DNA of 64,000 nt, taken from contig NW_004797465.1 of NCBI RefSeq assembly GCF_000002075.1, positions 684,438-748,437 of the forward strand, read 5' to 3'. The position numbers and the translations under genes were made by a program. Source of the DNA: Aplysia californica. Its lineage: Eukaryota. The stretch's first letter is position 1. Every line of letters starts with the position of its first letter. Below the pieces are notes generated by a model that saw only the letters and a list, made by a program, of their open reading frames with translations, was not told the DNA's origin and did no database searches. Of the stretch, positions 432 through 63,734 are shown piece by piece.

Positions 432-1400
432 CTGTGGAACAAAAAGAAAATTAGTAAGATGGTCAACAGCTGGCACAATCAATGTCTCTCAGCTTTCGTC
501 TTGGTGTCATGTTGATGCGATGCTGAATTTTGCGCAAACGACGGCTTATATTGCCACCAAAGTGAGAACAGTTCGAGGCCATACGTCCGTTTATCACGTG
601 CACCAGAAATTTAACTGAGGAATTTATATGGTGTCGCACACAGGTCGAAAAAAACCCAGGAAATCTTGCTAAAATTCCCCGAGGATTTCCGTGCTGCACG
701 TGGCGGTTTTGCCACTTTAGGAAGCTTTTCTGTGCGCACTGGTTACCCATTAACACTTTCAGAGCATAACATTTTGAAACATTCCTTGTGGTCTTTTTTC
801 GGATATTTTTAAAGATAGGGCTGTCCTTCAAGGTGGTCCTTAACTTATGATGAAGTCTATAGTTAAGTGTGTAAAGCGAATAGAGCTTTCTGTAGAGTGG
901 GTATATGCGCTTTACAAATNNNNNNNNNNNNNNNNNNNNNNNNNNNNNNNNNNNNNNNNNNNNNNNNNNNNNNNNNNNNNNNNNNNNNNNNNNNNNNNNN
1001 NNNNNNNNNNNNNNNNNNNNNNNNNNNNNNNNNNNNNNNNNNNNNNNNNNNNNNNNNNNNNNNNNNNNNNNNNNNNNNNGCCTCTTCTTCTTCTTATTTT
1101 TCTTCTTCTTCTTCTTCCTCTTCTTCTTCTTCTTCTTCCTTTGCCCTAATGAATTACACATGTGCTATTCTTACTCTTTTCCTCCTCTCTCGATGAAGAG
1201 ACAGCGACCACCGTGGGCTTTGAAGGGTTTGCTGCACTTGGCAGAGTCATCTGTCGAGAGCAATGGACGTAGGGTTGATGTAAAAATAAGACACGGTAAC
1301 AATAATCTACCACACTGGTAGCATGGGAAGTGATGGACATTGCACACATATGATAAACAATCATACTATCAATTAGTCTGTCTGCCTTATCCCCTCACCC

Positions 1401-7400: not shown

Positions 7401-10400
7401 TTTGCACGAGTTTTACGCCGCTCGCAACTGCATAATGGCATTATATGAGCGCGCGAAACACAAGTTGGTTGCATTGACAACAGTTCACTGCAGGGCTGGG
7501 CTCGGGTCAATAATCAAATTTTAAAATGTTAGAATATAAAAATTTGGTGTAAATATATTTCAAACTTTAAACAACTTTTTAAAATAACATAAACATTTTA
7601 AACAATTTTATTTCATTTTACAATTTCCCATAACGGCCTTAATAAAATCCAGAACTCTGCTGGGATCAACGACGGAAAACAGACTTTCCAATTTTTTGCA
7701 TTTAAAATATTTCCTTCGGGTCTCTCCGAAGTCTAGACATTCGGTTAAAATGTGTCTAATGGTAAACTCTGTGCATCCGACACATAACGGCTTCTCATCT
7801 CTCTGAGGGAGGTATTTATGAGTTAGGGCCGTGTGTCCGATGCGTAATCGAGTAAAAATGACTTCGTCTCTTCTGGAGAGGCCCGAAGGATCTTGCGGTC
7901 CCAGCTTGGGCTTCATGTTGTAAAGTTTATTGTTTGTTCGTTTTTTCCAATGGGAATTGGCATCGAGGAAAACATGTTTCCAAAATGGGAAAGCAATGTC
8001 ATTGTTGCAAACAGTAGCAATTATGGCCTTTGTAACAAATCAGTAACTCGGCAAAGAGGAAACCCTTAATGTCAACTACTGGACAACTATCAAAGAGAGG
8101 CACATAAAGAAAACTATTATATAACGTATAAAAAGACCAGATGGAATCTGTCCGTAAAGAAGACAATATAATTTAAATTTTCTCTATTTTTCGAATCCAA
8201 AAAATAAGTATGTGAAAAGCAGAGAGTAAAAGGGAACAGGTTCAGGGACTTTTATTTTACTATAAACTTCGGCTTTGTACTCAAATGGTTTAGATCTGGA
8301 TTGCAACCCCCACAATTCATAGAAGAAAGTAAGTCAAATGAAAAGTGGCGCAAAATTTATGACAGTGCAGACGAGATGAACAAGCTATAATTAATATTGT
8401 CTAGGGTAGGTGAGCTGCATGTCTATTCACAAAGAATCATGTGAGAACAAACCTTCATCGGCGTTTGGCCCGAAACAAACTTTGAATACTGCATGACAGT
8501 TGTTCTTCACCCAGGCCTTCCTTCCTTTATAGCCAAAGGATTCACCTTTCTTGCATTTGCCTTTAGACAATTTTTCGATCATCTTCATAGACTTGATTTT
8601 CTTGGTCTTTGAAAGAGTTTTCTTGTCTTTCTTTTTGTTTTTGCTTTTGAGTGTTACAGTTTTGCAATTATCTTCATCCTCACCTGAGAAAACAACACAG
8701 GTAAATGTACTGAAGACATCAGCCCATAACATTGATAACCTGCCCAATACTTTTGATATAGACACGTGTTACAAGAGTTAGAGTAAAGCTTTTTTGTTGC
8801 CGCAAAGGTTTAAACCACATTTCAAGCGGTCTAAAAAAAGAAAAGTTTCGATATAAAAAAGCTATCATGTTGCGTATTTTACTCAATTTTTTACTTTAAA
8901 AGGCGCTGGAAGGATTGACTCGGATGTGTCTATTAAAAACGCAAGAGTATGTTTTTTTTTTCATGATCAAGACAAAATCATTGAATCTAAATATATTATT
9001 TTGCACTGTAGACGCAAGTGGTTTTAACTTCATTTAAATATTTTAAATTGAATTCTTATGAAGATTTACAGTCGAAAAAAAAATATTTTGAAAAACAAAA
9101 TCTGAAGGCAGTGGCACCAACCACCGAAATGTACCACTACTATTTCCAAAGGAGACAATGCCTCAATAGTCAAACGTTAAAACAATAGTAATTTAAGGAG
9201 AGGCGATAGTAAAGAGAGTTTAAGATTGATAAAGAGTGTACAAAGAGAGTATTGAAAGAAAAGCTGAAAGTTGCCCTTATTGAAGAAAGATTATTTATTT
9301 AAGGATTTATTTCCGACCTAAAAATCTACGTAAAATACGGTGAGCCATAAAAAAAACAAGGAAGAAAGTAATTTAATAAAATAAAATAGTTCTGGTGCAA
9401 AATTCAGGAGATAGCACAAAAGACTTAGATGCTGGAAGGAATGATTCTGATAGATTATTTTGCATAATAGATCTAGAAAAAGGTGGTTTTAACATCATTT
9501 GCATTTTGTAAACCGAATCCTTTTGAAGATTTACAATCGAAAAAAAAATATTTCTGAAACAAAATCTGAAGGCAGTAGCACCAATTACCGAAAGTACCCC
9601 TACTATTTCCAAAGAAGACAAAGGCTCAATGGTCAAACGCAAAAACAACCGTGTTTTAAGGAGAGGCGATAGTAAATAGAGTTTCCGAATCCATAGGAAG
9701 ATTTACATTCGAAAAATATATATTTCCAAAACAAAATCTGAAGGCAGTGGCACCTACCACTGAGAAGTACCGCTACTATTTCCAAAACAGACAATGCCTC
9801 ACTGGTCAAACGTAAAGACAATCGTGGTTTTAGGAGAGATGATAGTAAAGAGAGTTTAAGATTGATAAAGAGTGTACAATGTATTGAAAGAAAAGCTGGA
9901 AGTTGGCCTTACTAAAGACAGATTATTTATTTAAGGATTTTTTTTCCGACCTAAAAATCTACGTAAAATGCGGTGAGGCGTGAAAAAATAAGGAAGAAAG
10001 TACTTCATAAAAATAGAGTTCTTCTGGTGCAAAATTCACGAGATAGCATAAAAGATTTAGAAGTTGGAAGAAATGATTCTAATAGATTAGTAGCTGCATC
10101 GTTTTCCAAGAATTTAAAAACAACAACACCCCAACAAACCTTTATCGCCTTTTGGCTTGTAGCAAACTTTGAATACTGCACGGCAGTTATTCTTCACCCA
10201 GGCCTTCTTTCCTTTAAAGCCAAAGGATTTGTTCTTCTTGCACTTGCCCTTTGACTTTTCTTCTTTCATCTTCATAGACTTGATTTTCTTGGCCTTTGAA
10301 AGAGTCTTCTGATCTTTCTTTTTGTTTTTGCTTTCAAGTGTTATAGATTTGCATTTCTCTTTACCGCCCTCGTTGTCATCGTCGTCGTCTGAAGAAATAT

Positions 10401-31400: not shown

Positions 31401-32976
31401 CCTGCAGAGATTGATCTGGTGGTGAGTGAAGAGAAGCCTAGTTTAGAGAAGATCAAGGAGGCGATAAGACACCAGAAAGCAGCCAGGCAAGGAGGCCGGC
31501 CCAGATGGAATTCCCCTAGAAGTTCTCAATGCGATATCGACCCTGCGGCAGGGATTCCTCAAGGAATTATTGGCAAAATATGGGACAGCAAAAAATTTCC
31601 TCAGGATTGGAGAAAGGGATTGCTCGTGAATCTATCCAAGAAAGGAGACCTGCATGAGTGTAAAAACTACAGAGGAATCCTGCTCCTGTCAATTCCAGGG
31701 AAGACTTTAAGTCGTACCATACTGGAAAGACTGAAGGAAGCCGAGGATGCAAAACTGAGAGAAAAGCAGGCAGGATTTCGTAAAAAGAGATCCTGTACAG
31801 ATCAGATTGCAACTTTGAGGATAATAGTGGAGCAGTCCACGGAGTGAAACTCTTCCCTGAACGTTAACCTTGTTGACTACGAGAAAGCTTTTGACAGCCT
31901 AGATAGAGACTCAATATAGAAGCTCAAGAGCCACTACGGAATACCTTACACGTTTGTGAGATTGATAAAGAAGATGTAGAAGGGAATGAGCTGCAGTGTC
32001 TTAGGAGGGAATGATCTGCAGTGTTTTACTTGGAGGGCAGCGGACAGACTCGTTTGAAGTGAATACAAGAATGAGACAGGGATGCCTGCTATCGTCTTTT
32101 CTCTTTTCATTAGAAGTGGATTGGATAATGAGACATACAACATCGGGAAAACCTGGTGGCATACAGTGGCCCCTTTCCAGTCAGTTGCAAGACTTGGATT
32201 GTGCCGACGAATTGGTACTTCTTTCTCAGAGTCGAGCCCAGGTGCAACAGCAAACAGATCGGCTTGGGACCTTCTCCCGTAGTGTTGGACTCCATACTCA
32301 CACGGATAAAACGAAAAATCTTCGAACGGATGCAGCCGACGTACCTATCACACTGCAAGGGGCACCATTGGAATATGTTGAATCCTTCACCTACCTGGAA
32401 AATGTCATTAACAAGGCAGGGGGAACAGACGAAGACATCAAGGTCAGAATCCAAAAGGCTAGAGCAGCATTTATCATTCTCAGGAATATATGGATGTCTG
32501 AGGAACTGGGATCAAACACCAAGCTGAGGATCTTCAAAACAAACGTGAAGACTGTTCTACTGAATGGTTCAGAGACATGGAGTCTCACAGCATCAGCAGC
32601 AAGGAAACTGCAGAGCTTCGTAAATGGATGTCTAAGAAGGATAGTGGTGATCAAGTGGTACAATCGAGTCACAAATACTCAACTGTGGGAAAGAACAAGC
32701 CAAAGGCCAGTAAAGGAAGACATTCAGGGGAAGAAATGGAAATGAACTGGACACACCCCGAGGAGAACCCTGAAAAGCATCATCAGACAGACTTTGACGT
32801 GGAACCCACAAGGAAAACGTTAAAAGGGAAGACCAAAGATGACATGGAGACAACCAGTGCAAGCAGAAATAGAAAAAGCGGGGACATCATGGAAACAGCT
32901 AGAAAAGGATGCACAGCAAAGCTTCGCTGGAGTAATGTTGTTGATGACCTGTGCTCCACTGGGAGTTAAAAAGGGC

Positions 32977-33012
<36 letters not shown>

Positions 33013-48000: not shown

Positions 48001-51000
48001 TAATTCTTGAAACTTTGGTTTCGATTTGGATTGCAGCCGCAACACACAAGGTAGAAAGCAACCCATTGAATGGCTGATAGAAAAGTCACGAAAAGACGCA
48101 CGAAATACACAGACCGGAAGCAGTGGTTTTGATAAGTATGATCTAAAATGGTTTTCAAGAGCTCAAGGAAACACAAACCTTCGTCGCCTTTGCCGCCTTT
48201 TGGCTTGTAGCAAACTTTGAAAACTGCACGGCAGTTGTTCTTCACCCAGGCCTTCCTTCCTTTGTAGCCAAAGGATTTATTCTTTTTGCACTTGCCGTTT
48301 GACAGCTCTTTCGTTATCTTCATTGACTTGATTTTCTTGGCCTTTGAAAGAGATTTCTCGTCTTTCTTTTTCTGTTTGCTTTCTAGTTTTAACTTTCTGC
48401 AGTTGCCTTTACCGCCTTCTTCTTCTTCCTCATCATCGTCTGAAGAAAAAGATTAAAAGAATACACTGCAGACATAAGCACCTAACTTACAAACCAAATT
48501 CACGGAATTTTCGCAAACGAATACATGTGAAAATAGGAATGTGTCCAAATAATTGGAAGAGAAGGAAACCAGTTACAAAACATAAAACTATTGTTTGAAT
48601 AAACAATTTCTGACTTTCCCAGAAGAAAAACCAAGAACAACAAAAATGACCACGAATGTAAATACGACAGAAGTTCCAAATCTTAGGCCAAGAGTGATAC
48701 CGATTGAATGACGTTAGGAAAAATCAGATAATGGGTGCCTTCAGAAAGGCAGAATGTTTTTCGAACTTTTCCATTTTTATCCCTTAAAGTATGTGGAATG
48801 AAGGGAGGAAAAAAGTAGCAGAATCAGTCAGTGGGAGAAGTTCTTGAAACTCCGGAGTGGCACATAAATGAATCAGATTTGGAATGCAAGCGCAACAAAC
48901 GAGGTAGGAGGACACCTATTGAAAACCTCACAAAAATGTCAAGAGAAGGTAGACGACATAAGCAAACCAGAAGTAATAACTTTGATAAGTTGAATGCGAG
49001 ATTGTTTTCCAGTACTCAGGTGAAAACAAACCTTCATCGCCTTTTGGCTTGTAGCAAACTTTGAATACTGCACGGCAGTTGTTCTTCACCCAGGCCTTTC
49101 TTCCTTTATAGCCAAAGGATTTATTCTTCTTGCACTTGCCCTCAGACAGTTCTTTCGTTATCTTCATTGACTTGATTTTCTTGGCCTTGGAAAGAGATTT
49201 CTGGTCTTTTTCTTTGTTTTTGCTTTCAAGTTTTAAAGTTCTGCAGTTGCCTTTATCGCCTTCATCGCCTTCTTCCTCATCATCGTCTGAGAGAAAAGGT
49301 GAAAATAATATACTGCAGACGTCAGCGCCTAACTTACATACCCATTCTACGACAATTTGCTAATACATGCGTAGAAACACCCGCTAATAGAATGTTTTTA
49401 AAAACCTGGGATTCCATGACACTAGTTACAGACGGGAAAAGTATTGTTGCAGCAAACAAGTATTAACTGTTATGCTAAAAATAAACACCAACCCAGCAGA
49501 TAAATGGCAAAAGGAAAGAAATTCCAAAAGTTAGGCAAAGATTGGTAACAATAGTATGGCGCTAAGAAAGACAATATTGAAGGGTATCCACAAGAAAGAT
49601 CTCATGTTTTTGTACTTTGTTTTTCTTCAAATTTTCCACCTTTATCCTTAAAATAATGTGAAACGTGGTGAGCAAAACGGAACGGAATCAGTCAGTGGGA
49701 GTAATTCTTGAAACTTTGGTTTCGATTTGGATTGCAGCCGCAACACACAAGGTAGAAAGCAACCCATTGAATGGCTGATAGAAAAGTCACGAAAAGACGC
49801 ACGAAATACACAGACCGGAAGTAGTGGTTTTGATAAGTATGATCTAAAATGGTTTTCAAGAGCTCAAGGAAACACAAACCTTCGTCGCCTTTGCCGCCTT
49901 TTGGCTTGTAGCAAACTTTGAAAACTGCACGGCAGTTGTTCTTCACCCAGGCCTTCCTTCCTTTGTAGCCAAAGGACTTATTCTTTTTGCACTTGCCGTT
50001 TGACAGCTCTTTCGTTATCTTCATTGACTTGATTTTCTTGGCCTTTGAAAGAGATTTCTCGTCTTTCTTTTTCTGTTTGCTTTCTAGTTTTAACTTTCTG
50101 CAGTTGCCTTTACCGCCTTCTTCTTCTTCCTCATCATCGTCTGAAGAAAAAGATTAAAAGAATACACTGCAGACATAAGCACCTAACTTACAAACCAAAT
50201 TCACGGAATTTTCGCAAACGAATACATGTGAAAATAGGAATGTGTCCAAATAATTGGAAGAGAAGGAAACCAGTTACAAAACGTAAAACTATTGTTTGAA
50301 TAAACAATTTCTGACTTTCCCAGAAGAAAAACCAAGAACAACAAAAATGACCACGAATGTAAATACGACAGAAGTTCCAAATCTTAGGCCAAGAGTGATA
50401 CCGATTGAATGACGTTAGGAAAAATCAGATAATGGGTGCCTTCAGAAAGGCAGAATGTTTTTCGAACTTTTCCATTTTTATCCCTTAAAGTATGTGGAAT
50501 GAAGGGAGGAAAAAAGTAGCAGAATCAGTCAGTGGGAGAAGTTCTTGAAACTCCGGAGTGGCACATAAATGAATCAGATTTGGAATGCAAGCGCAACAAA
50601 CGAGGTAGGAGGACACCTATTGAAAACCTCACAAAAATGTCAAGAGAAGGTAGACGACATAAGCAAACCAGAAGTAATAACTTTGATAAGTTGAATGCGA
50701 GATTGTTTTCCAGTACTCAGGTGAAAACAAACCTTCATCGCCTTTTGGCTTGTAGCAAACTTTGAATACTGCACGGCAGTTGTTCTTCACCCAGGCCTTT
50801 CTTCCTTTATAGCCAAAGGATTTATTCTTCTTGCACTTGCCCTCAGACAGTTCTTTCGTTATCTTCATTGACTTGATTTTCTTGGCCTTGGAAAGAGATT
50901 TCTGGTCTTTTTCTTTGTTTTTGCTTTCAAGTTTTAAAGTTCTGCAGTTGCCTTTATCGCCTTCATCGCCTTCTTCCTCATCATCGTCTGAGAGAAAAGG

Positions 51001-54000
51001 TGAAAATAATATACTGCAGACGTCAGCGCCTAACTTACATACCCATTCTACGACAATTTGCTAACACATGCGTAGAAACACCCGCTAATAGAATGTTTTT
51101 AAAAACCTGGGATTCCATGACACTAGTTACAGACGGGAAAAGTATTGTTGCAGCAAACAAGTATTAACTGTTATGCTAAAAATAAACACCAACCAAGCAG
51201 ATAAATGGCAAAAGGAAAGAAATTCCAAAAGTTAGGCAAAGATTGGTAACGATAGTATGGCGCTAAGAAAGACAATATTGAAGGGTATCCACAAGAAAGA
51301 TCTCATGTTTTTGTACTTTGTTTTTCTTCAAATTTTCCACCTTTATCCTTAAAATAATGTGAAAAGTGGTGAGCAAAACGGAACGGAATCAGTCAGTGGG
51401 AGTAATTCTTGAAACTTTGGTTTCGATTTGGATTGCAGCCGCAACACACAAGGTAGAAAGCAACCCATTGAATGGCTGATAGAAAAGTCACGAAAAGACG
51501 CACGAAATACACAGACCGGAAGTAGTGGTTTTGATAAGTATGATCTAAAATGGTTTTCAAGAGCTCAAGGAAACACAAACCTTCGTCGCCTTTGCCGCCT
51601 TTTGGCTTGTAGCAAACTTTGAAAACTGCACGGCAGTTGTTCTTCACCCAGGCCTTCCTTCCTTTGTAGCCAAAGGACTTATTCTTTTTGCACTTGCCGT
51701 TTGACAGCTCTTTCGTTATCTTCATTGACTTGATTTTCTTGGCCTTTGAAAGAGATTTCTCGTCTTTCTTTTTCTGTTTGCTTTCTAGTTTTAACTTTCT
51801 GCAGTTGCCTTTACCGCCTTCTTCTTCTTCCTCATCATCGTCTGAAGAAAAAGATTAAAAGAATACACTGCAGACATAAGCACCTAACTTACAAACCAAA
51901 TTCACGGAATTTTCGCAAACGAATACATGTGAAAATAGGAATGTGTCCAAATAATTGGAAGAGAAGGAAACCAGTTACAAAACGTAAAACTATTGTTTGA
52001 ATAAACAATTTCTGACTTTCCCAGAAGAAAAACCAAGAACAACAAAAATGACCACGAATGTAAATACGACAGAAGTTCCAAATCTTAGGCCAAGAGTGAT
52101 ACCGATTGAATGACGTTAGGAAAAATCAGATAATGGGTGCCTTCAGAAAGGCAGAATGTTTTTCGAACTTTTCCATTTTTATCCCTTAAAGTATGTGGAA
52201 TGAAGGGAGGAAAAAAGTAGCAGAATCAGTCAGTGGGAGAAGTTCTTGAAACTCCGGAGTGGCACATAAATGAATCAGATTTGGAATGCAAGCGCAACAA
52301 ACGAGGTAGGAGGACACCTATTGAAAACCTCACAAAAATGTCAAGAGAAGGTAGACGACATAAGCAAACCAGAAGTAATAACTTTGATAAGTTGAATGCG
52401 AGATTGTTTTCCAGTACTCAGGTGAAAACAAACCTTCATCGCCTTTTGGCTTGTAGCAAACTTTGAATACTGCACGGCAGTTGTTCTTCACCCAGGCCTT
52501 TCTTCCTTTATAGCCAAAGGATTTATTCTTCTTGCACTTGCCCTCAGACAGTTCTTTCGTTATCTTCATTGACTTGATTTTCTTGGCCTTGGAAAGAGAT
52601 TTCTGGTCTTTTTCTTTGTTTTTGCTTTCAAGTTTTAAAGTTCTGCAGTTGCCTTTATCGCCTTCATCGCCTTCTTCCTCATCATCGTCTGAGAGAAAAG
52701 GTGAAAATAATATACTGCAGACGTCAGCGCCTAACTTACATACCCATTCTACGACAATTTGCTAACACATGCGTAGAAACACCCGCTAATAGAATGTTTT
52801 TAAAAACCTGGGATTCCATGACACTAGTTACAGACGGGAAAAGTATTGTTGCAGCAAACAAGTATTAACTGTTATGCTAAAAATAAACACCAACCAAGCA
52901 GATAAATGGCAAAAGGAAAGAAATTCCAAAAGTTAGGCAAAGATTGGTAACGATAGTATGGCGCTAAGAAAGACAATATTGAAGGGTATCCACAAGAAAG
53001 ATCTCATGTTTTTGTACTTTGTTTTTCTTCAAATTTTCCACCTTTATCCTTAAAATAATGTGAAAAGTGGTGAGCAAAACGGAACGGAATCAGTCAGTGG
53101 GAGTAATTCTTGAAACTTTGGTTTCGATTTGGATTGCAGCCGCAACACACAAGGTAGAAAGCAACCCATTGAATGGCTGATAGAAAAGTCACGAAAAGAC
53201 GCACGAAATACACAGACCGGAAGTAGTGGTTTTGATAAGTATGATCTAAAATGGTTTTCAAGAGCTCAAGGAAACACAAACCTTCGTCGCCTTTGCCGCC
53301 TTTTGGCTTGTAGCAAACTTTGAAAACTGCACGGCAGTTGTTCTTCACCCAGGCCTTCCTTCCTTTGTAGCCAAAGGACTTATTCTTTTTGCACTTGCCG
53401 TTTGACAGCTCTTTCGTTATCTTCATTGACTTGATTTTCTTGGCCTTTGAAAGAGATTTCTCGTCTTTCTTTTTCTGTTTGCTTTCTAGTTTTAACTTTC
53501 TGCAGTTGCCTTTACCGCCTTCTTCTTCTTCCTCATCATCGTCTGAAGAAAAAGATTAAAAGAATACACTGCAGACATAAGCACCTAACTTACAAACCAA
53601 ATTCACGGAATTTTCGCAAACGAATACATGTGAAAATAGGAATGTGTCCAAATAATTGGAAGAGAAGGAAACCAGTTACAAAACGTAAAACTATTGTTTG
53701 AATAAACAATTTCTGACTTTCCCAGAAGAAAAACCAAGAACAACAAAAATGACCACGAATGTAAATACGACAGAAGTTCCAAATCTTAGGCCAAGAGTGA
53801 TACCGATTGAATGACGTTAGGAAAAATCAGATAATGGGTGCCTTCAGAAAGGCAGAATGTTTTTCGAACTTTTCCATTTTTATCCCTTAAAGTATGTGGA
53901 ATGAAGGGAGGAAAAAAGTAGCAGAATCAGTCAGTGGGAGAAGTTCTTGAAACTCCGGAGTGGCACATAAATGAATCAGATTTGGAATGCAAGCGCAACA

Positions 54001-57000
54001 AACGAGGTAGGAGGACACCTATTGAAAACCTCACAAAAATGTCAAGAGAAGGTAGACGACATAAGCAAACCAGAAGTAATAACTTTGATAAGTTGAATGC
54101 GAGATTGTTTTCCAGTACTCAGGTGAAAACAAACCTTCATCGCCTTTTGGCTTGTAGCAAACTTTGAATACTGCACGGCAGTTGTTCTTCACCCAGGCCT
54201 TTCTTCCTTTATAGCCAAAGGATTTATTCTTCTTGCACTTGCCCTCAGACAGTTCTTTCGTTATCTTCATTGACTTGATTTTCTTGGCCTTGGAAAGAGA
54301 TTTCTGGTCTTTTTCTTTGTTTTTGCTTTCAAGTTTTAAAGTTCTGCAGTTGCCTTTATCGCCTTCATCGCCTTCTTCCTCATCATCGTCTGAGAGAAAA
54401 GGTGAAAATAATATACTGCAGACGTCAGCGCCTAACTTACATACCCATTCTACGACAATTTGCTAACACATGCGTAGAAACACCCGCTAATAGAATGTTT
54501 TTAAAAACCTGGGATTCCATGACACTAGTTACAGACGGGAAAAGTATTGTTGCAGCAAACAAGTATTAACTGTTATGCTAAAAATAAACACCAACCAAGC
54601 AGATAAATGGCAAAAGGAAAGAAATTCCAAAAGTTAGGCAAAGATTGGTAACGATAGTATGGCGCTAAGAAAGACAATATTGAAGGGTATCCACAAGAAA
54701 GATCTCATGTTTTTGTACTTTGTTTTTCTTCAAATTTTCCACCTTTATCCTTAAAATAATGTGAAAAGTGGTGAGCAAAACGGAACGGAATCAGTCAGTG
54801 GGAGTAATTCTTGAAACTTTGGTTTCGATTTGGATTGCAGCCGCAACACACAAGGTAGAAAGCAACCCATTGAATGGCTGATAGAAAAGTCACGAAAAGA
54901 CGCACGAAATACACAGACCGGAAGTAGTGGTTTTGATAAGTATGATCTAAAATGGTTTTCAAGAGCTCAAGGAAACACAAACCTTCGTCGCCTTTGCCGC
55001 CTTTTGGCTTGTAGCAAACTTTGAAAACTGCACGGCAGTTGTTCTTCACCCAGGCCTTCCTTCCTTTGTAGCCAAAGGATTTATTCTTTTTGCACTTGCC
55101 GTTTGACAGCTCTTTCGTTATCTTCATTGACTTGATTTTCTTGGCCTTTGAAAGAGATTTCTCGTCTTTCTTTTTCTGTTTGCTTTCTAGTTTTAACTTT
55201 CTGCAGTTGCCTTTACCGCCTTCTTCTTCCTCATCATCGTCTGAAGAAAAAGATTAAAAGAATACACTGCAGACATAAGCACCTAACTTACAAACCAAAT
55301 TCACGGAATTTTCGCAAACCAATACATGTGAAATTAGGAATGTGTCCAAATAATTGGAAGAGAAGGAAACCAGTTACAAAACGTAAAACTATTGTTTGAA
55401 TAAACAATTTCTGACTTTCCCAGAAGAAAAACCAAGAACAACAAAAATGACCACGAATGTAAATACGACAGAAGTTCCAAATGTTAGGCCAAGAGTGATA
55501 CCGATTGAATGACGTTAGGAAAAATCAGATAATGGGTGCCTTCAGAAAGGCAGAATGTTTTTCGAACTTTTCCATTTTTATCCCTTAAAGTATGTGGAAT
55601 GAAGGGAGGAAAAAAGTAGCAGAATCAGTCAGTGGGAGAAGTTCTTGAAACTCCGGAGTGGCACATAAATGAATCAGATTTGGAATGCAAGCGCAACAAA
55701 CGAGGTAGGAGGACACCTTTTGAAATCCTCACAAAAATGTCAAAAGAAGGTAGACGGCATAAGCAAACCAGAAGTAATAACTTTGATAAGTTGAATGCGA
55801 GATTGTTTTCCAGTACTCAGGTGAAAACAAACCTTCATCGCCTTTTGGCTTGTAGCAAACTTTGAATACTGCACGGCAGTTGTTCTTCACCCAGGCCTTT
55901 CTTCCTTTATAGCCAAAGGATTTATTCTTCTTGCACTTGCCCTCAGACAGTTCTTTCGTTATCTTCATTGACTTGATTTTCTTGGCCTTGGAAAGAGATT
56001 TCTGGTCTTTTTCTTTGTTTTTGCTTTCAAGTTTTAAAGTTCTGCAGTTGCCTTTATCGCCTTCATCGCCTTCTTCCTCATCATCGTCTGAGAGAAAAGG
56101 TGAAAATAATATACTGCAGACGTCAGCGCCTAACTTACATACCCATTCTACGACAATTTGCTAATACATGCGTAGAAACACCCGCTAATAGAATGTTTTT
56201 AAAAACCTGGGATTCCATGACACTAGTTACAGACGGGAAAAGTATTGTTGCAACAAACAAGTATTAACTGTTATGCTAAAAATAAACACCAACCAAGCAG
56301 ATAAATGGCAAAAGGAAAGAAATTCCAAAAGTTAGGCAAAGATTGGTAACGATAGTATGGCACTATGAAAGACAATATTGAAGGGTATCCACAAGAAAGA
56401 TCTCATGTTTTTGTACTTTGTTTTTCTTCAAATTTTCCACCTTTATCCTTAAAATAATGTGAAACGTGGTGAGCAAAACGGAACGGAATCAGTCAGTGGG
56501 AGTAATTCTTGAAACTTTGGTTTCGATTTGGATTGCAGCCGCAACACACAAGGTAGAAAGCAACCCATTGAATGGCTGATAGAAAAGTCATGAAAAGACG
56601 CACGAAATACACAGACCGGAAGTAGTGGTTTTGATAAGTATGATCTAAAATGGTTTTCAAGAGCTCAAGGAAACACAAACCTTCGTCGCCTTTGCCGCCT
56701 TTTGGCTTGTAGCAAACTTTGAAAACTGCACGGCAGTTGTTCTTCACCCAGGCCTTCCTTCCTTTGTAGCCAAAGGATTTATTCTTTTTGCACTTGCCGT
56801 TTGACAGCTCTTTCGTTATCTTCATTGACTTGATTTTCTTGGCCTTTGAAAGAGATTTCTCGTCTTTCTTTTTCTGTTTGCTTTCTAGTTTTAACTTTCT
56901 GCAGTTGCCTTTACCGCCTTCTTCTTCTTCCTCATCATCGTCTGAAGAAAAAGATTAAAAGAATACACTGCAGACATAAGCACCTAACTTACAAACCAAA

Positions 57001-60000
57001 TTCACGGAATTTTCGCAAACGAATACATGTGAAAATAGGAATGTGTCCAAATAATTGGAAGAGAAGGAAACCAGTTACAAAACATAAAACTATTGTTTGA
57101 ATAAACAATTTCTGACTTTCCCAGAAGAAAAACCAAGAACAACAAAAATGACCACGAATGTAAATACGACAGAAGTTCCAAATCTTAGGCCAAGAGTGAT
57201 ACCGATTGAATGACGTTAGGAAAAATCAGATAATGGGTGCCTTCAGAAAGGCAGAATGTTTTTCGAACTTTTCCATTTTTATCCCTTAAAGTATGTGGAA
57301 TGAAGGGAGGAAAAAAGTAGCAGAATCAGTCAGTGGGAGAAGTTCTTGAAACTCCGGAGTGGCACATAAATGAATCAGATTTGGAATGCAAGCGCAACAA
57401 ACGAGGTAGGAGGACACCTATTGAAAACCTCACAAAAATGTCAAGAGAAGGTAGACGACATAAGCAAACCAGAAGTAATAACTTTGATAAGTTGAATGCG
57501 AGATTGTTTTCCAGTACTCAGGTGAAAACAAACCTTCATCGCCTTTTGGCTTGTAGCAAACTTTGAATACTGCACGGCAGTCGTTCTTCACCCAGGCCTT
57601 CCTTCCTTTATAGCCAAAAGATTTATTCTTTTTGCACTTGCCCTCTGACAGTTCTTTCGTTATCTTCATTGACTTGATTTTCTTGGCCTTTGAAAGAGAT
57701 TTCTGGTCTTTCTCTTTGTTTTTGCTTTCAAGTTTTAAAGTTCTGCAGTTGCCTTTATCGCCTTCATCGCCCTCTTCCTCATCATCGTCTGAGAGAAAAG
57801 GTGAAAATAATATACTGCAGAGGTATGCGCCTAAATTACATACCCATTCTACGGCAATTTGCTAATACATGCGTAGAAGTACCTGCTAATAGAATGTTTC
57901 CAAAATCCTGGGATTCCATGCCACAAGTTACAGACGGGAAAAGTATTGTTGCAGCACACAATTATTAACTGTTATGTTTAAAAAACACCGACCCAGCCAA
58001 TAAATGGAAAAAGGAAAGAAATTCCAAAAGGTAGACAAAGATTGGTAACAATAGTACAGCACTAGGACAGAACATATTGAAGGGTATCCACAAGAAAGAT
58101 ATCATGTTTTTGTACTTTGTTTTTCTTCAAATTTTCCACCTTTATCCTTAAAATAATGTGAAAAGTGGTGAGCAAAACGGAACGGAATCAGTCAGTGGGA
58201 GTAATTCTTGAAACTTTGGTTTCGATTTGGATTGCAGCCGCAACACACAAGGTAGAAAGCAACCCATTGAATGGCTGATAGAAAAGTCACGAAAAGACGC
58301 ACGAAATACACAGACCGGAAGTAGTGGTTTTGATAAGTATGATCTAAAATGGTTTTCAAGAGCTCAAGGAAACACAAACCTTCGTCGCCTTTGCCGCCTT
58401 TTGGCTTGTAGCAAACTTTGAAAACTGCACGGCAGTTGTTCTTCACCCAGGCCTTCCTTCCTTTGTAGCCAAAGGATTTATTCTTTTTGCACTTGCCGTT
58501 TGACAGCTCTTTCGTTATCTTCATTGACTTGATTTTCTTGGCCTTTGAAAGGGATTTCTCGTCTTTCTTTTTCTGTTTGCTTTCTAGTTTTAACTTTCTG
58601 CAGTTGCCTTTACCGCCTTCTTCTTCTTCCTCATCATCGTCTGAAGAAAAAGATTAAAAGAATACACTGCAGACATAAGCACCTAACTTACAAACCAAAT
58701 TCACGGAATTTTCGCAAACGAATACATGTGAAAATAGGAATGTGTCCAAATAATTGGAAGAGAAGGAAACCAGTTACAAAACGTAAAACTATTGTTTGAA
58801 TAAACAATTTCTGACTTTCCCAGAAGAAAAACCAAGAACAACAAAAATGACCACGAATGTAAATACGACAGAAGTTCCAAATCTTAGGCCAAGAGTGATA
58901 CCGATTGAATGACGTTAGGAAAAATCAGATAATGGGTGCCTTCAGAAAGGCAGAATGTTTTTCGAACTTTTCCATTTTTATCCCTTAAAGTATGTGGAAT
59001 GAAGGGAGGAAAAAAGTAGCAGAATCAGTCAGTGGGAGAAGTTCTTGAAACTCCGGAGTGACACATAAATGAATCAGATTTGGAATGCAAGCGCAACAAA
59101 CGAGGTAGGAGGACACCTATTGAAAACCTCACAAAAATGTCAAGAGAAGGTAGACGACATAAGCAAACCAGAAGTAATAACTTTGATAAGTTGAATGCGA
59201 GATTGTTTTCCAGTACTCAGGTGAAAACAAACCTTCATCGCCTTTTGGCTTGTAGCAAACTTTGAATACTGCACGGCAGTCGTTCTTCACCCAGGCCTTC
59301 CTTCCTTTATAGCCAAAAGATTTATTCTTTTTGCACTTGCCCTCTGACAGTTCTTTCGTTATCTTCATTGACTTGATTTTCTTGGCCTTTGAAAGAGATT
59401 TCTCGTCTTTCTTTTTCTGTTTGCTTTCTAGTTTTAACTTTCTGCAGTTGCCTTTACCGCCTTCTTCTTCTTCCTCATCATCGTCTGAAGAAAAAGATTA
59501 AAAGAATACACTGCAGACATAAGCACCTAACTTACAAACCAAATTCACGGAATTTTCGCAAACGAATACATGTGAAAATAGGAATGTGTCCAAATAATTG
59601 GAAGAGAAGGAAACCAGTTACAAAACGTAAAACTATTGTTTGAATAAACAATTTCTGACTTTCCCAGAAGAAAAACCAAGAACAACAAAAATGACCACGA
59701 ATGTAAATACGACAGAAGTTCCAAATCTTAGGCCAAGAGTGATACCGATTGAATGACGTTAGGAAAAATCAGATAATGGGTGCCTTCAGAAAGGCAGAAT
59801 GTTTTTCGAACTTTTCCATTTTTATCCCTTAAAGTATGTGGAATGAAGGGAGGAAAAAAGTAGCAGAATCAGTCAGTGGGAGAAGTTCTTGAAACTCCGG
59901 AGTGACACATAAATGAATCAGATTTGGAATGCAAGCGCAACAAACGAGGTAGGAGGACACCTATTGAAAACCTCACAAAAATGTCAAGAGAAGGTAGACG

Positions 60001-63000
60001 ACATAAGCAAACCAGAAGTAATAACTTTGATAAGTTGAATGCGAGATTGTTTTCCAGTACTCAGGTGAAAACAAACCTTCATCGCCTTTTGGCTTGTAGC
60101 AAACTTTGAATACTGCACGGCAGTCGTTCTTCACCCAGGCCTTCCTTCCTTTATAGCCAAAAGATTTATTCTTTTTGCACTTGCCCTCTGACAGTTCTTT
60201 CGTTATCTTCATTGACTTGATTTTCTTGGCCTTTGAAAGAGATTTCTGGTCTTTCTCTTTGTTTTTGCTTTCAAGTTTTAAAGTTCTGCAGTTGCCTTTA
60301 TCGCCTTCATCGCCCTCTTCCTCATCATCGTCTGAGAGAAAAGGTGAAAATAATATACTGCAGAGGTATGCGCCTAAATTACATACCCATTCTACGGCAA
60401 TTTGCTAACACATGCGTAGAAACACCCGCTAATAGAATGTTTTTAAAAACCTGGGATTCCATGACACTAGTTACAGACGGGAAAAGTATTATTGCAGCAA
60501 ACAAGTATTAACTGTTATGCTAAAAATAAACACCAACCAAGCAGATAAATGGCAAAAGGAAAGAAATTCCAAAAGTTAGGCAAAGATTGGTAACGATAGT
60601 ATGGCGCTAAGAAAGACAATATTGAAGGGTATCCACAAGAAAGATCTCATGTTTTTGTACTTTGTTTTTCTTCAAATTTTCCACCTTTATCCTTAAAATA
60701 ATGTGAAAAGTGGTGAGCAAAACGGAACGGAATCAGTCAGTGGGAGTAATTCTTGAAACTTTGGTTTCGATTTGGATTGCAGCCGCAACACACAAGGTAG
60801 AAAGCAACCCATTGAATGGCTGATAGAAAAGTCACGAAAAGACGCACGAAATACACAGACCGGAAGTAGTGGTTTTGATAAGTATGATCTAAAATGGTTT
60901 TCAAGAGCTCAAGGAAACACAAACCTTCGTCGCCTTTGCCGCCTTTTGGCTTGTAGCAAACTTTGAAAACTGCACGGCAGTTGTTCTTCACCCAGGCCTT
61001 CCTTCCTTTGTAGCCAAAGGATTTATCCTTTTTGCACTTGCCGTTTGACAGCTCTTTCGTTATCTTCATTGACTTGATTTTCTTGGCCTTTGAAAGAGAT
61101 TTCTCGTCTTTCTTTTTCTGTTTGCTTTCTAGTTTTAACTTTCTGCAGTTGCCTTTACCGCCTTCTTCTTCTTCCTCATCATCGTCTGAAGAAAAAGATT
61201 AAAAGAATACACTGCAGACATAAGCACCTAACTTACAAACCAAATTCACGGAATTTTCGCAAACGAATACATGTGAAAATAGGAATGTGTCCAAATAATT
61301 GGAAGAGAAGGAAACCAGTTACAAAACATAAAACTATTGTTTGAATAAACAATTTCTGACTTTCCCAGAAGAAAAACCAAGAACAACAAAAATGACCACG
61401 AATGTAAATACGACAGAAGTTCCAAATGTTAGGCCAAGAGTGATACCGATTGAATGACGTTAGGAACAATCAGATAATGGGTGCCTTCAGAAAGGCAGAA
61501 TGTTTTTCGAACTTTTCCATTTTTATCCCTTAAAGTATGTGGAATGAAGGGAGGAAAAAAGTAGCAGAATCAGTCTTTGGGAGAAGTTCTTGAAACTCCG
61601 GAGTGGCACATAAATGAATCAGATTTGGAATGCAAGCGCAACAAACGAGGTAGGAGGACACCTATTGAAAACCTCACAAAAATGTCAAGAGAAGGTAGAC
61701 GACATAAGCAAACCAGAAGTAATAACTTTGATAAGTTGAATGCGAGATTGTTTTCCAGTACTCAGGTGAAAACAAACCTTCATCGCCTTTTGGCTTGTAG
61801 CAAACTTTGAATACTGCACGGCAGTCGTTCTTCACCCAGGCCTTTCTTCCTTTATAGGCAAAGGATTTATTCTTCTTGCACTTGCCCTCTGACAGTTCTT
61901 TCGTTATCTTCATTGACTTGATTTTCTTGGCCTTGGAAAGAGATTTCTGGTCTTTTTCTTTGTTTTTGCTTTCAAGTTTTAAAGTTCTGCAGTTGCCTTT
62001 CTCGCCATCATCGCCTTCTTCCTCATCATCGTCTGAGTGAAAAGGTAAAAATAATATACTGCAGACGTCAGCATCTAATTTAAATACCCATTTCTCCCTA
62101 TTTTGATCAAGCTCATTTTTTGTAAAGAATTACCTACAAGAAAGAATGTTTCCAAAATATCCTTCGGCAATAACATCAATTACTGACGGAACAATTTATG
62201 TCACAGTATTCAGTTACTGACTCAGTAAGAAAAAAGAAACCCCAAAAGGCTTTTTATGCCAATAGAATAGACATTCTAAAGGAAAGGCCAAGACTGATTC
62301 CGATTGTATGACGTTAGGAAAGAACGCAAGGGGTGTGTCCTTCAGAAAGACAGAATGTTTCTCCCAGCATTTCATTTGTATAGCTAAAAGCATGTGGAAT
62401 ATAAGGAGCAAAACGGAGCAGAAACAGTCGGCGGGAGTATTTATTACAATTTTAGACAGGCTCTCATATGACTAAAATTTGGATTGCAGTCGTAACAAGT
62501 AGGAACAAAGCAACGCATTTAAATACTGATGCAGAATTTACGAGAAGGCAGATCAGATACACAGACCAAGAAAAATGAATTTGATAATGCAGCAGCCACA
62601 TTGTTTTCCAGTACTCAGGTGAAAACAAACCTTCATCGCCTTTTGGCTTGTAGCAAACTTTGAATACTGCACGGCAGTCGTTCTTCACCCAGGCCTTCCT
62701 TCCTTTATAGCCAAAAGATTTATTCTTTTTGCACTTGCCCTCTGACAGTTCTTTCGTTATCTTCATTGACTTGATTTTCTTGGCCTTTGAAAGAGATTTC
62801 TGGTCTTTCTCTTTGTTTTTGCTTTCAAGTTTTAAAGTTCTGCAGTTGCCTTTATCGCCTTCATCGCCCTCTTCCTCATCATCGTCTGAGAGAAAAGGTG
62901 AAAATAATATACTGCAGAGGTATGCGCCTAAATTACATACCCATTCTACGGCAATTTGCTAATACATGCGTAGAAGTACCTGCTAATAGAATGTTTCCAA

Positions 63001-63734
63001 AATCCTGGGATTCCATGCCACAAGTTACAGACGGGAAAAGTATTGTTGCAGCACACAATTATTAACTGTTATGTTTAAAAAACACCGACCCAGCCAATAA
63101 ATGGAAAAAGGAAAGAAATTCCAAAAGGTAGACAAAGATTGGTAACAATAGTACAGCACTAGGACAGAACATATTGAAGGGTATCCACAAGAAAGATATC
63201 ATGTTTTTGTATTTTGTATTTCTTCAAATTTTCCACATTTATCCTTAAGATCATGTGAAATGTGCTGAGCAAAACGGAACGGAATCTGGCAGTGGGAGTA
63301 ATTCTTGAAACTTTGGTTTCGAATTGGATTGCAGCAGCAACGCACAAGGTAGAAAGAAACCCATTGAATTGCTGATAGAAAAGTCACGAAAAGACGCACA
63401 AAGTACACACACCGGAGGTAGTGGTTTTGATAAGTATGCTGTTAAATGGTTTTCAAGAGCTCAAGGAAACACAAACCTTCGTCGCCTTTGCCGCCTTTTG
63501 GCTTGTAGCAAACTTTGAAAACTGCACGGCAGTTGTTCTTCACCCAGGCCTTCCTTCCTTTGTAGCCAAAGGATTTATCCTTTTTGCACTTGCCGTTTGA
63601 CAGCTCTTTCGTTATCTTCATTGACTTGATTTTCTTGGCCTTTGAAAGAGATTTCTCGTCTTTCTTTTTCTGTTTGCTTTCTAGTTTTAACTTTCTGCAG
63701 TTGCCTTTATCGCCTTCTTCTTCCTCATCATCGT
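322..63734 (-). CDS. Giant multi-exon gene (partial at both ends): >=60 tandem Lys-rich ADEL/DUF3011-like lectin-fold repeats + linker + C-type lectin domain
   Basis: 63 exons with polypyrimidine-YAG acceptors and GT donors, all phase-compatible; 60 repeat exons sum to about 5,070 codons; no start exon or stop exon in window. Confidence 0.85.
1082..1140. repeat. (CTT)n microsatellite
   Basis: Visible imperfect trinucleotide run next to a gap. Confidence 0.9.
1175..1250 (-). CDS. C-type lectin domain exon 1: DDSAKCSKPFKAHGGRCLFIERGGK(E)
   Basis: Acceptor CTCTCGACAG|AT, donor GA|GTAAGA; 76 bp, phase 1-2; matches long-form CTLD N-terminus C...W/F...GG.C(Y/L). Confidence 0.8.
1404..1454. repeat. 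(CT)n microsatellite
   Basis: Perfect dinucleotide run. Confidence 0.95.
1784..1813 (-). CDS. 30-bp linker micro-exon (G)KPGSSPNEP
   Basis: Acceptor TTTCTTTTTTTCTTCAG|GA, donor CCAG|GTAAGA; phase 1-1. Confidence 0.7.
1887..1997. repeat. Degenerate (ATC)n low-complexity repeat
   Basis: catcat/atcatc runs. Confidence 0.8.
2812..3045 (-). CDS. Last, most divergent ADEL/DUF3011-like repeat exon (ETDNVCKKKKLKS...CQFDATYGFDGPMVWVSGGCKGEFEVCYDK)
   Basis: CAG acceptor, G|GTAAAG donor, 234 bp, phase 1-1, 4 Cys. Confidence 0.88.
4408..4635 (-). CDS. Lys-rich ADEL-like repeat exon (diverged singleton)
   Basis: CAG / G|GTTTGT, 228 bp, phase 1-1. Confidence 0.88.
5530..5760 (-). CDS. Lys-rich ADEL-like repeat exon (diverged singleton)
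   Basis: CAG / G|GTTTGT, 231 bp. Confidence 0.88.
6075..6538 (-). mobile_element. Probable tRNA-derived SINE-like insertion with two tRNA-like modules
   Basis: Absent from paralogous introns; degenerate A/B boxes (GTGATGTAGCGAT...TTTGATTCCCGAC at 6455-6538; GACCTGAGTTTGATTAC at 6171-6257); ends approximate. Confidence 0.45.
6927..7157 (-). CDS. Lys-rich ADEL-like repeat exon (diverged singleton)
   Basis: CAG / G|GTTTGT, 231 bp. Confidence 0.88.
7396..7956 (-). mobile_element. 5'-truncated non-LTR retrotransposon 3' end (I/Nimb-like, C-terminal zinc knuckle)
   Basis: ORF 7608-7916 with RLRIGH...C..C....TIRHIL..C; 9-bp TSD ttggcatcg at 7387-7395 and 7957-7965. Confidence 0.85.
8453..8683 (-). 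CDS. Lys-rich ADEL-like repeat exon (diverged singleton)
   Basis: CAG / G|GTTTGT, 231 bp. Confidence 0.88.
10140..10388 (-). CDS. Array-1 repeat exon
   Basis: CAG / G|GTTTGT, 249 bp. Confidence 0.85.
11233..11484 (-). CDS. Array-1 repeat exon
   Basis: CAG / G|GTTTGT, 252 bp. Confidence 0.85.
12157..12411 (-). CDS. Array-1 repeat exon
   Basis: 255 bp, D8 linker. Confidence 0.85.
13256..13510 (-). CDS. Array-1 repeat exon
   Basis: 255 bp, D8 linker. Confidence 0.85.
14355..14606 (-). CDS. Array-1 repeat exon
   Basis: 252 bp. Confidence 0.85.
15451..15702 (-). CDS. Array-1 repeat exon
   Basis: 252 bp. Confidence 0.85.
16547..16798 (-). CDS. Array-1 repeat exon
   Basis: 252 bp. Confidence 0.85.
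17643..17894 (-). CDS. Array-1 repeat exon
   Basis: 252 bp. Confidence 0.85.
18567..18818 (-). CDS. Array-1 repeat exon
   Basis: 252 bp. Confidence 0.85.
19663..19914 (-). CDS. Array-1 repeat exon
   Basis: 252 bp. Confidence 0.85.
20759..21010 (-). CDS. Array-1 repeat exon
   Basis: 252 bp. Confidence 0.85.
21683..21934 (-). CDS. Array-1 repeat exon
   Basis: 252 bp. Confidence 0.85.
22779..23030 (-). CDS. Array-1 repeat exon
   Basis: 252 bp. Confidence 0.85.
23703..23954 (-). CDS. Array-1 repeat exon
   Basis: 252 bp. Confidence 0.85.
24627..24875 (-). CDS. Array-1 repeat exon
   Basis: 249 bp, D6 linker. Confidence 0.85.
25720..25971 (-). CDS. Array-1 repeat exon
   Basis: 252 bp. Confidence 0.85.
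26816..27064 (-). CDS. Array-1 repeat exon
   Basis: 249 bp, D6 linker. Confidence 0.8.
27912..28163 (-). CDS. Array-1 repeat exon
   Basis: 252 bp. Confidence 0.8.
29043..29105 (-). mobile_element. 63-bp retroelement 3'-tail insertion with (TACA)n tail
   Basis: TSD atggtttttt at 29033-29042 and 29106-29115; core ttttacggcgctcgcaactgc...atatgagcgcgc resembles the 3' end of the LINE at 7411-7455. Confidence 0.65.
29156..29599. mobile_element. About 445-bp intronic insertion, possible degenerate MITE
   Basis: Interrupts the gaatctaaa|tagattatt intron motif; weak inverted ends (aggcgcgcatcaa vs ttgacgagcgcct). Confidence 0.4.
29918..30022 (-). pseudogene. Truncated, frameshifted repeat pseudo-exon (AKEEEESGKEKCKSVTLESKYRKKNH...)
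   Basis: Keeps CAG acceptor and 5' half; 8-nt deletion relative to sister exons; 3' half and donor are missing. Confidence 0.75.
30835..30857. repeat. (CAA)n microsatellite next to a splice donor
   Basis: Expanded relative to array-1 units. Confidence 0.85.
30878..31123 (-). CDS. Repeat exon, array-1-like, at the junction
   Basis: CAG / G|GTTTGT, 246 bp, open. Confidence 0.8.
31150..32970 (+). mobile_element. Decayed, 5'-truncated RTE-like LINE (reverse transcriptase), antisense to host gene
   Basis: RT motifs KKGDLHECKNYRGI.LLS.PGK, QAGFRKKRSCTDQIATLRIIVEQS, RQGCLLS, LDCADELVLL, FTYL; stops and frameshifts; followed by (GA)n; 5' boundary approximate. Confidence 0.92.
32981..33012. repeat. 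(GA)n microsatellite at LINE 3' end
   Basis: Perfect run ending at a gap. Confidence 0.9.
33113..33155 (-). CDS. Partial repeat exon (DDDEEEGDEVEKDK...) running into an assembly gap
   Basis: CAG acceptor plus acidic linker codons; remainder is in Ns 33013-33112 or lost. Confidence 0.45.
33750..34010 (-). CDS. Array-2 type A repeat exon
   Basis: CAG / G|GTTTGT, 261 bp. Confidence 0.85.
34604..34858 (-). CDS. Array-2 type B repeat exon
   Basis: 255 bp. Confidence 0.85.
35425..35679 (-). CDS. Array-2 type B' repeat exon
   Basis: 255 bp, TAG acceptor. Confidence 0.83.
36272..36532 (-). CDS. Array-2 type A repeat exon
   Basis: 261 bp. Confidence 0.85.
37125..37379 (-). CDS. Array-2 type B repeat exon
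   Basis: 255 bp. Confidence 0.85.
37973..38233 (-). CDS. Array-2 type A repeat exon
   Basis: 261 bp. Confidence 0.85.
38826..39080 (-). CDS. Array-2 type B repeat exon
   Basis: 255 bp. Confidence 0.85.
39674..39934 (-). CDS. Array-2 type A repeat exon
   Basis: 261 bp. Confidence 0.85.
40527..40781 (-). CDS. Array-2 type B repeat exon
   Basis: 255 bp. Confidence 0.85.
41375..41635 (-). CDS. Array-2 type A repeat exon
   Basis: 261 bp. Confidence 0.85.
42228..42482 (-). CDS. Array-2 type B repeat exon
   Basis: 255 bp. Confidence 0.85.
43076..43336 (-). CDS. Array-2 type A repeat exon
   Basis: 261 bp. Confidence 0.85.
43929..44183 (-). CDS. Array-2 type B repeat exon
   Basis: 255 bp. Confidence 0.85.
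44777..45037 (-). CDS. Array-2 type A repeat exon
   Basis: 261 bp. Confidence 0.85.
45630..45884 (-). CDS. Array-2 type B repeat exon
   Basis: 255 bp. Confidence 0.85.
46478..46738 (-). CDS. Array-2 type A repeat exon
   Basis: 261 bp. Confidence 0.85.
47331..47585 (-). CDS. Array-2 type B repeat exon
   Basis: 255 bp. Confidence 0.85.
48179..48439 (-). CDS. Array-2 type A repeat exon
   Basis: 261 bp. Confidence 0.85.
49032..49286 (-). CDS. Array-2 type B repeat exon
   Basis: 255 bp. Confidence 0.85.
49880..50140 (-). CDS. Array-2 type A repeat exon
   Basis: 261 bp. Confidence 0.85.
50733..50987 (-). CDS. Array-2 type B repeat exon
   Basis: 255 bp. Confidence 0.85.
51581..51841 (-). CDS. 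Array-2 type A repeat exon
   Basis: 261 bp. Confidence 0.85.
52434..52688 (-). CDS. Array-2 type B repeat exon
   Basis: 255 bp. Confidence 0.85.
53282..53542 (-). CDS. Array-2 type A repeat exon
   Basis: 261 bp. Confidence 0.85.
54135..54389 (-). CDS. Array-2 type B repeat exon
   Basis: 255 bp. Confidence 0.85.
54983..55240 (-). CDS. Array-2 type A repeat exon
   Basis: 258 bp (one Glu codon fewer). Confidence 0.85.
55833..56087 (-). CDS. Array-2 type B repeat exon
   Basis: 255 bp. Confidence 0.85.
56681..56941 (-). CDS. Array-2 type A repeat exon
   Basis: 261 bp. Confidence 0.85.
57534..57788 (-). CDS. Array-2 type B repeat exon
   Basis: 255 bp. Confidence 0.85.
58380..58640 (-). CDS. 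Array-2 type A repeat exon
   Basis: 261 bp. Confidence 0.85.
59233..59484 (-). CDS. Chimeric A/B repeat exon
   Basis: 252 bp; N-terminal half type A, C-terminal half type B. Confidence 0.8.
60077..60331 (-). CDS. Array-2 type B repeat exon
   Basis: 255 bp. Confidence 0.85.
60925..61185 (-). CDS. Array-2 type A repeat exon
   Basis: 261 bp. Confidence 0.85.
61778..62032 (-). CDS. Array-2 type B repeat exon (SFAY variant)
   Basis: 255 bp. Confidence 0.85.
62631..62885 (-). CDS. Array-2 type B' repeat exon
   Basis: 255 bp. Confidence 0.85.
63477..63734 (-). CDS. Array-2 type A repeat exon
   Basis: 258 bp. Confidence 0.85.

Follow-up and report, generated by a model that had tools for sequence, protein, structure and literature searches.

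The question raised by this locus is what purpose a long array of lysine-rich DUF3011 domains, each preceded by an acidic linker, could serve. An earlier note, made from the letters alone, had proposed a lectin fold repurposed as a polycationic or polyampholyte scaffold. The window (the whole stretch of 64,000 nucleotides that was analysed; G000:C195:684,438-748,437 of the 927-Mb Aplysia californica assembly) is the middle part of one gene of ~190 kb. On its minus strand we counted 60 intact exons, all of phase 1-1 and bounded by AG and GT; 55 of them lay inside 10140..63734. Array 2 (33750..63734, minus strand) comprised 36 phase 1-1 exons of 252-261 nt and continued upstream of the window to G000:C195:806,874. 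Each of its exons encoded an acidic linker and one Lys-rich DUF3011 domain, mostly in an alternating two-exon unit of ~1.7 kb; these dimer units were 98.8-99.2% identical, as against 77% between the two monomers. Array 1 (10140..31123, minus strand) was composed of 19 exons of 246-255 nt with 33% Lys and a poly-Asp linker, namely 18 near-identical units at 10140-28163 and one at 30878-31123. Its units were ~97% identical, introns included. The introns at 10140-28163 occurred in an 844- and a 672-nt form that differed by one copy of a 173-bp internal repeat.

Array 1 was followed on the same strand by four divergent Lys-rich DUF3011 exons with short linkers (8453-8683, 6927-7157, 5530-5760 and 4408-4635) and by the divergent last DUF3011 exon of the array (2812..3045, minus strand; 28% identical to array 1). 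Then came a 30-nt Gly/Pro/Ser linker exon (1784..1813, minus strand; joints 1250/1784 and 1812/2811 in runs X5 and X6) and the two first exons of a C-type-lectin-like domain, 1175..1250 and 322..431, both on the minus strand. The former is defined by its splice joints and by a counterpart in a paralog on contig C80 (a Pfam scan of this fragment gave no match); the latter contained 31% Lys. Other remnants were a truncated array-1-type pseudo-exon with an intact acceptor and an in-frame stop (29918..30019, minus strand), the beginning of another array exon running into a 100-N stretch (33116..33155, minus strand) and, between arrays 1 and 2, an intronic piece of a broken LINE-type reverse transcriptase (31229..32966, plus strand). 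A second broken LINE-type fragment lies in an intron at 7611-8039 (minus strand); both were named by eye.

The whole array up to C195:806,874 comprised 112 intact one-domain DUF3011 exons encoding 9,567 aa, stop-free and in frame, and held 18 more copies that were degenerate, truncated or gap-cut. About 15 degenerate or truncated copies were interspersed with intact ones at C195:778,169-801,986, and one of them, near 778,169-778,242, is readable in frame as a mini-exon containing one Cys. With units this alike (97-99% identity) and 100-N gaps within the array, the number of copies may be miscounted. Upstream of the array lies an exon that resembles a signal peptide and has a phase-1 donor; a TATA box stands 155 nt ahead of its ATG. 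If this exon is joined to the array, the product is predicted to be secreted. The auto-built model of the tail contained 10 phase mismatches and spurious segments and gave at least ~2,400 aa after 3 of 46 segments had been dropped as spurious. Together with the array, the whole predicted protein therefore has about 12,000 aa. Because we found the array represented in databases only by two fragments, of 301 and 199 residues, labelled 'lectin ADEL-like [Aplysia californica]', a gene of ~12,000 codons seems to be absent from the annotation of a model animal.

Below the array, the tail began with the 30-nt linker exon, the C-type-lectin-like domain, a WxxW domain, a vWD-C8-TIL unit, EGF and further lectin domains. 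It continued with one more Lys-rich DUF3011-like domain, WxxW, EGF, a second vWD-C8-TIL unit and EGF-Ca domains. Its last part consisted of a degenerate region of vWD-like and TIL type, exons that look Kazal-like by eye, and a knot-like end with 9 Cys. A stop near 627,720 and an AATAAA near C195:627,700 closed the gene. Pfam scans of 29 and 15 exon frames of the tail gave matches over the cut-off for Mucin2_WxxW (one), VWD (four exon matches, two domains), TIL (two), C8 (one), EGF (three) and EGF_CA (three). Lectin_C stayed under the cut-off (E 0.0035 and 0.011), and the first C8 and the third vWD were recognised by eye only. The last two exons contained 9 Cys, a CC-x-P and a terminal CxC; cystine knot and Kazal domains gave no Pfam or Atlas match, the knot search being made with the larger of these two exons. 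Word-index searches with the vWD tail exons matched no database protein. A PTS-rich region was not found in the array (P+T+S 10.5%) or in the modelled tail exons, which had short Pro/Thr stretches only.

Four sequencing runs were compared with the locus. In two of them, X5 and X6 (whose status as RNA is a guess), contigs with depths of 933 and 706 connected the last DUF3011 exon to the lectin exons across GT-AG introns, and most intron bins were near zero depth. The array-1 exon-to-exon joint 10388 to 10140 was present in run X8, and run X21 (raw-read polyA) had a depth of ~1 or less on array exons. Because a contig of X5 joins exon 2812-3045 to an exon end common to exon 6927 and the 19 array-1 exons, exons 4408 and 5530, at least, were skipped or absent in the X5 animal. 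A contig of X6 starts 4 letters above the 3045 junction and is compatible with two upstream partners. The depth of array-1 contigs, a poor measure, was only ~3x and ~12x that of the unique part as against 19 copies, so many transcripts may be shorter than the full gene.

The first lectin domain is incomplete in the assembly, its remainder falling in a stretch of 1,859 N below the window. The lectin exon after 322..431 is absent from the assembled sequence and is expected within this stretch; the translated loose end resembled the matching exon of the paralog. A contig of 3,708 nt extended ~3,250 nt past window position 321 and thus exceeded the N stretch. Because the N stretch interrupts the locus and no single read or contig spans the whole gene, the link between the array and the vWD exons rests on the reach of this contig and on the C80 paralog, both of which disfavour two separate genes. 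The paralog (G000:C80:140,000-223,000, minus strand; L061-L065, L069-L072) has 7 DUF3011 exons ahead of a vWD/lectin/EGF tail like that of the present gene. From these DUF3011 exons through to the final coding region the two genes agree in exon order, and the paralog is gap-free over the junction of array and tail. With the same architecture and without the cationic character, it constitutes a natural control. Its DUF3011 domains contained 8.1% K and lacked the W/Y motif. Over 939 aligned residues of the tail, Lys amounted to 11.9% in the present gene versus 5.3% in the paralog, with 83 versus 21 unshared Lys (p 7e-10). Judged from these alignments, the Lys enrichment is specific to the present paralog and reaches into the tail.

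The charge blocks themselves were much as the earlier note had described them. In the commonest array-1 unit (84 aa, 13 identical copies) we counted the same 28 K, 1 R, 9 D and 5 E, net +15, and the clustered acids of the linker were found as 7 D plus E, i.e. 8 consecutive acids at the opening of the unit. The ~33% Lys claimed for the domain held for array 1 (19 exons, 32.9-33.7%) but not for array 2 (36 exons, 24.7-29.1%), whose units had net charges of +7 to +15; the unit that had been counted is the extreme, and the mean over 10140..63734 was 29.4%. The supposed alternation of Lys was only partial (13 K-x-K versus 5 KK pairs in the array-1 unit), and in the AlphaFold model 13 of the 28 Lys fell in predicted strands and 15 in loops. 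The claimed retention of WV..CRA.F was seen for W, V, C, A and F, invariant in all 28 distinct 64-codon cores; R varies. All 112 intact units contained 4 Cys. Over these units the cores from C1 to C4 were net +11 to +21 (mean +18.1) and the Cys-to-Cys linkers -9 to +1 (mean -6.2). For the four commonest units this segregation was reached by 5, 0, 0 and 1 of 500 composition-preserving shuffles. The 112-exon array had 28.1% K, a net charge of +1,329 and a pI of 9.7, and the last 1,401 modelled residues of the tail were net -104. One N-glycosylation sequon per unit was present in 98 of the 112 units and could mask charge.

A-rich mutational drift as the source of the lysines was rejected, since AAG made up 47% of the Lys codons (AAA 1,438, AAG 1,254) and dN/dS was 0.36; in the same comparison (12 of the 112 exons, 66 non-independent pairs) exon cores were 87% identical versus 62% for flanking intron. 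Among the best 150 of 1,830 DUF3011 profile matches, domain Lys had a median of 2% and a 95th percentile of 12%, and only P0110 and P0098 exceeded 20%, besides two fragments of the present gene. Cationic DUF3011 domains are therefore rare, though not unique. P0110, a foreign database exon, combines an acidic linker and a Lys-rich domain as in the present gene (50-71% identity); an exact match to it was not found here. P0098 (163 aa, 22.7% Lys, signal-like start) and P0014 (Arg-rich, 266 aa) are independent cationic DUF3011 proteins.

The earlier note had named repeats predicted to be unfolded as an outcome that would speak against a scaffold of folded domains. AlphaFold predicted the single domain as a six-stranded all-beta structure (mean pLDDT 87; 52 rows), and in a tandem fragment (31 rows) the domains were predicted folded with pLDDT 93-98, linkers being <50 and pTM 0.35. 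The models suggest beads on a string with no predicted docking, that is, disulfide-held beta domains connected by disordered acidic linkers. To judge from strand order, the three loops with the ADEL motifs probably meet at one tip, which would now be a lysine patch. A sequence search of solved structures yielded one match (E 0.57), which was rejected, Foldseek found no solved relative at E up to 0.001, and VIA-align over 48,161 chains gave a best Z of 4.9 and none >=5, the weak rows including H-type lectins at Z 4.1. In the Atlas the repeat matched only DUF3011 clusters (0.85-0.86) and the last exon nothing.

How does the array relate to the ADEL and AKL lectins? Four of six window exons scored 29.9-35.4 bits with DUF3011 (PF11218; Pfam gathering cut-off 25 bits), and the two last 24.6 and 22.1 bits. 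The ADEL motifs which the earlier note had named proved to be real: in 27 ADEL-type domains of the same genome, which include peptides reported for AKL, we found W in 25, Y in 24, Y in 25, Q in 27, G in 27 and D in 25. Their replacement was equally clear, with K, K, K, L/K, N/D and V at these positions in 9 array rows. The array retained the frame of Cys, Ser, Met, FG, WV and CRA.F of the ADEL-type domains, and mostly also the Ser of ES, the Ser of QS and the Arg of CRA. Because this Arg is mostly kept, uronate binding may persist in the array domains. ADEL/AKL and the array belong to one domain family, have each domain on an exon of its own in this genome, and share the Cys frame, FG, WV, CRA.F and a signal peptide. 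ADEL, however, has 3 domains in 238 aa with 3.8% K and net -4, and the ADEL/AKL pattern of three domains, ~237 aa and an acidic pI is replaced here by 112 domains, pI 9.7 and a vWD tail. By the tests run, the present protein has a DUF3011 domain and is not an ADEL lectin.

In a tree of 68 columns with unsettled bootstrap, the ADEL rows formed one side of a branch (88/81) with the array outside, and the array grouped with the C80 domains at only 82/77. The idea of a repurposed lectin fold appears too direct: a non-cationic paralog, at 8% Lys, also lacks the W/Y motif, so the array is probably not a direct descendant of ADEL. Because the C80 domains already lack the motif and the weak tree puts the array outside ADEL, its loss likely preceded the gain of Lys. 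The known ligand of the family is itself an anionic sugar. Since AKL haemagglutination is reported to be blocked by galacturonic acid at 0.013 mM, while galactose fails at 100 mM (PMC5484111), a galactoside, which the earlier note had suggested, is the wrong test ligand.

A dozen or more three-exon ADEL-type loci are found genome-wide (L029-L048; C32, C506, C454, C656, C33, C432, C155, C224, C351, C285, C417, C296 and others). L040:2292-2936 (G000:C3:4,040,306-4,040,848) holds three intronless ADEL domains with one stop and is likely a retrocopy. Multi-DUF3011 genes with Thr/Pro linkers lie on C292 (L051-L056) and C146 (L059-L060), the C292 domains having Gly/Tyr-rich inserts. A term search of an Aplysia immunome paper returned no mention of ADEL or AKL (PMC9334734).

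In our view the ~12,000-residue product is likely the cationic cohesive scaffold of a secreted gel, with a probability of roughly 55%. Exons, open frame, charge blocks, the Pfam domains of the tail and splicing into the first tail exons were observed directly. The signal-peptide exon, the vWD-C8-TIL/EGF/C-type-lectin tail and the Lys enrichment relative to the paralog support the polycation or polyampholyte scaffold of the earlier note; its suggestions of a mineral and an antimicrobial role received no specific support. In such a scaffold, the tail would polymerise chains through vWD-C8-TIL and the cystine-knot-like end. Each domain (~+18) would bind sulfated or uronic polysaccharide electrostatically, gaining avidity from >100 copies. 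The chain would be neutralised in part by the acidic spacers (~-6) and by its acidic final stretch of ~1,400 residues, and this could let it pack in granules and cross-bridge on release. Sulfated mucopolysaccharide is described from membrane and mucus glands of Aplysia kurodai (PMC4786481), and gastropod pedal mucus holds it as well (PMC6262867). The idea of an opaline or lysine-store role found no support in a literature search. Among the titles and abstracts listed by searches that had most subscription journals outside their coverage, none described the present protein.

The closest known system is Mlig-ap1 of a flatworm, a proposed cohesive protein with K/R-rich regions, C-type lectin, vWD-C8-TIL and EGF domains, which is blocked by heparin, as is attachment (PMC6410801). 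As far as it is described there, it is likewise secreted and very large, has K/R-rich residues in the thousands and carries calcium-binding EGF domains. The ap1 core of C-type lectin, vWD-C8-TIL and calcium-binding EGF was found in our tail, with Lectin_C under the cut-off, and, compared by domain description, the sea-hare gene has more vWD units and WxxW domains. The low-complexity Gly/Arg/Lys flanks of ap1 were not found: the cationic regions of Mlig-ap1 are given as low-complexity (PMC9229212), with pI >14, whereas those of the present gene are 112 predicted folded domains with acidic linkers. By the tests run the present protein is not an ap1 ortholog; by analogy, it likely works like ap1. 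The limpet protein P-vulgata_1 (1,854 aa without the start), made in pedal-sole glands, is reported to contain two vWD, a C-type lectin, six EGF, three Kazal and a cystine knot domain (PMC7333891). By this domain list it resembles the last part of our tail, where Kazal and knot domains are putative; a DUF3011 array is not reported for it, and the 5' end of the limpet sequence is missing. Its sequence was not found in the one supplement of PMC7333891 that was searched. Gel-forming mucins share vWD-C8-TIL units, WxxW (CysD-type) domains, a huge repeat region and, in putative form, a cystine-knot-like end with the present protein, and VWD, C8 and TIL were all over the cut-off on tail exons. Glycosylated mucin repeats are anionic. 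Here a PTS region is absent and the repeats are N-terminal, folded and cationic, and by the tests run the protein is not a strict mucin.

Could the product instead be a giant multivalent lectin, each of its domains still having a specific site for galacturonate or a similar uronic sugar and the lysines doing no more than guiding the ligand there? The anionic ligand of AKL (PMC5484111), the four exons over the DUF3011 cut-off and the retained Ser and Arg residues would fit. We nevertheless consider this unlikely, as W, Y, Y, Q, G and D, present in 24-27 of 27 ADEL domains, are replaced, Lys was gained across the tail too and the array falls outside the ADEL group, albeit weakly supported. Equally unlikely appears a capsulin-type structural protein of capsule or cuticle, with lysines serving mainly as covalent cross-link sites and not as electrostatic binders. 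A 17-repeat DUF3011 protein of Elysia marginata is named capsulin, ADEL and AKL are egg proteins, capsulin has been ascribed a mechanical role in the egg capsule, and cross-linking through Lys has been suggested for cationic egg-case proteins of cuttlefish (PMC4500399). Two sacoglossan proteins labelled capsulin, P0004 (an automatic label) and P0003, are likewise long secreted strings, of 17-26 DUF3011 domains, and net positive. They differ, however, in 7-12% Lys, Thr/Pro linkers and no tail-fitting Pfam domain over the cut-off. The Elysia capsulin itself has 6.9% Lys, Thr/Pro linkers and no vWD tail, and its best matches lie on C292 and C146, not on the present locus (for P0004, E 6e-8 and 8e-8 as against 1e-4 or worse here). 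Cross-linking, moreover, has no need of acidic linkers.

ADEL reportedly has antibacterial potential, according to the title of the ADEL paper. Cationic disulfide-held domains, whole or cut at the linkers, might act on bacteria in mucus or egg jelly as an antimicrobial or agglutinating reservoir, and cores of +11 to +21 on 64 residues, like the bacteriostatic activity described for the cationic SepECPs (PMC4500399), agree with this. We regard it as quite improbable: a KR or RR pair is missing from 109 of the 112 units, each unit has only 1 Trp and the polymerising-type tail would be left unexplained. Least credible, to the point of being very improbable, is mineral control by Asp/Glu linkers binding calcium carbonate in a shell or statolith matrix. 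Acidic runs of 6-8 residues occur and shell matrices contain C-type lectin domains such as perlucin (PMC11940790), but these runs are short, the chain is strongly net positive and no mineralising context was found.

The cohesive scaffold would most plausibly come from foot or skin mucus, although at less than even odds, followed at no great distance by the egg string and, on a par with it, the gut or another tissue. A bolder version, which we put forward as speculative and rather doubtful, is a charge-inverted mucin: a megadalton gel-former in which >100 folded polycationic beads would replace the bottle-brush. Skipping of symmetric exons might tune its length and charge, and the acidic spacers might clamp a granule form until sulfated polysaccharide displaces them, coacervating the chains into a seawater-proof gel. 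Folded, disulfide-held polycation beads with acidic spacers would differ from the disordered K/R tracts of the known cohesive proteins of marine glues. They would give DUF3011 a non-lectin structural role and offer a molecular way into the mucus or egg jelly of sea hares.
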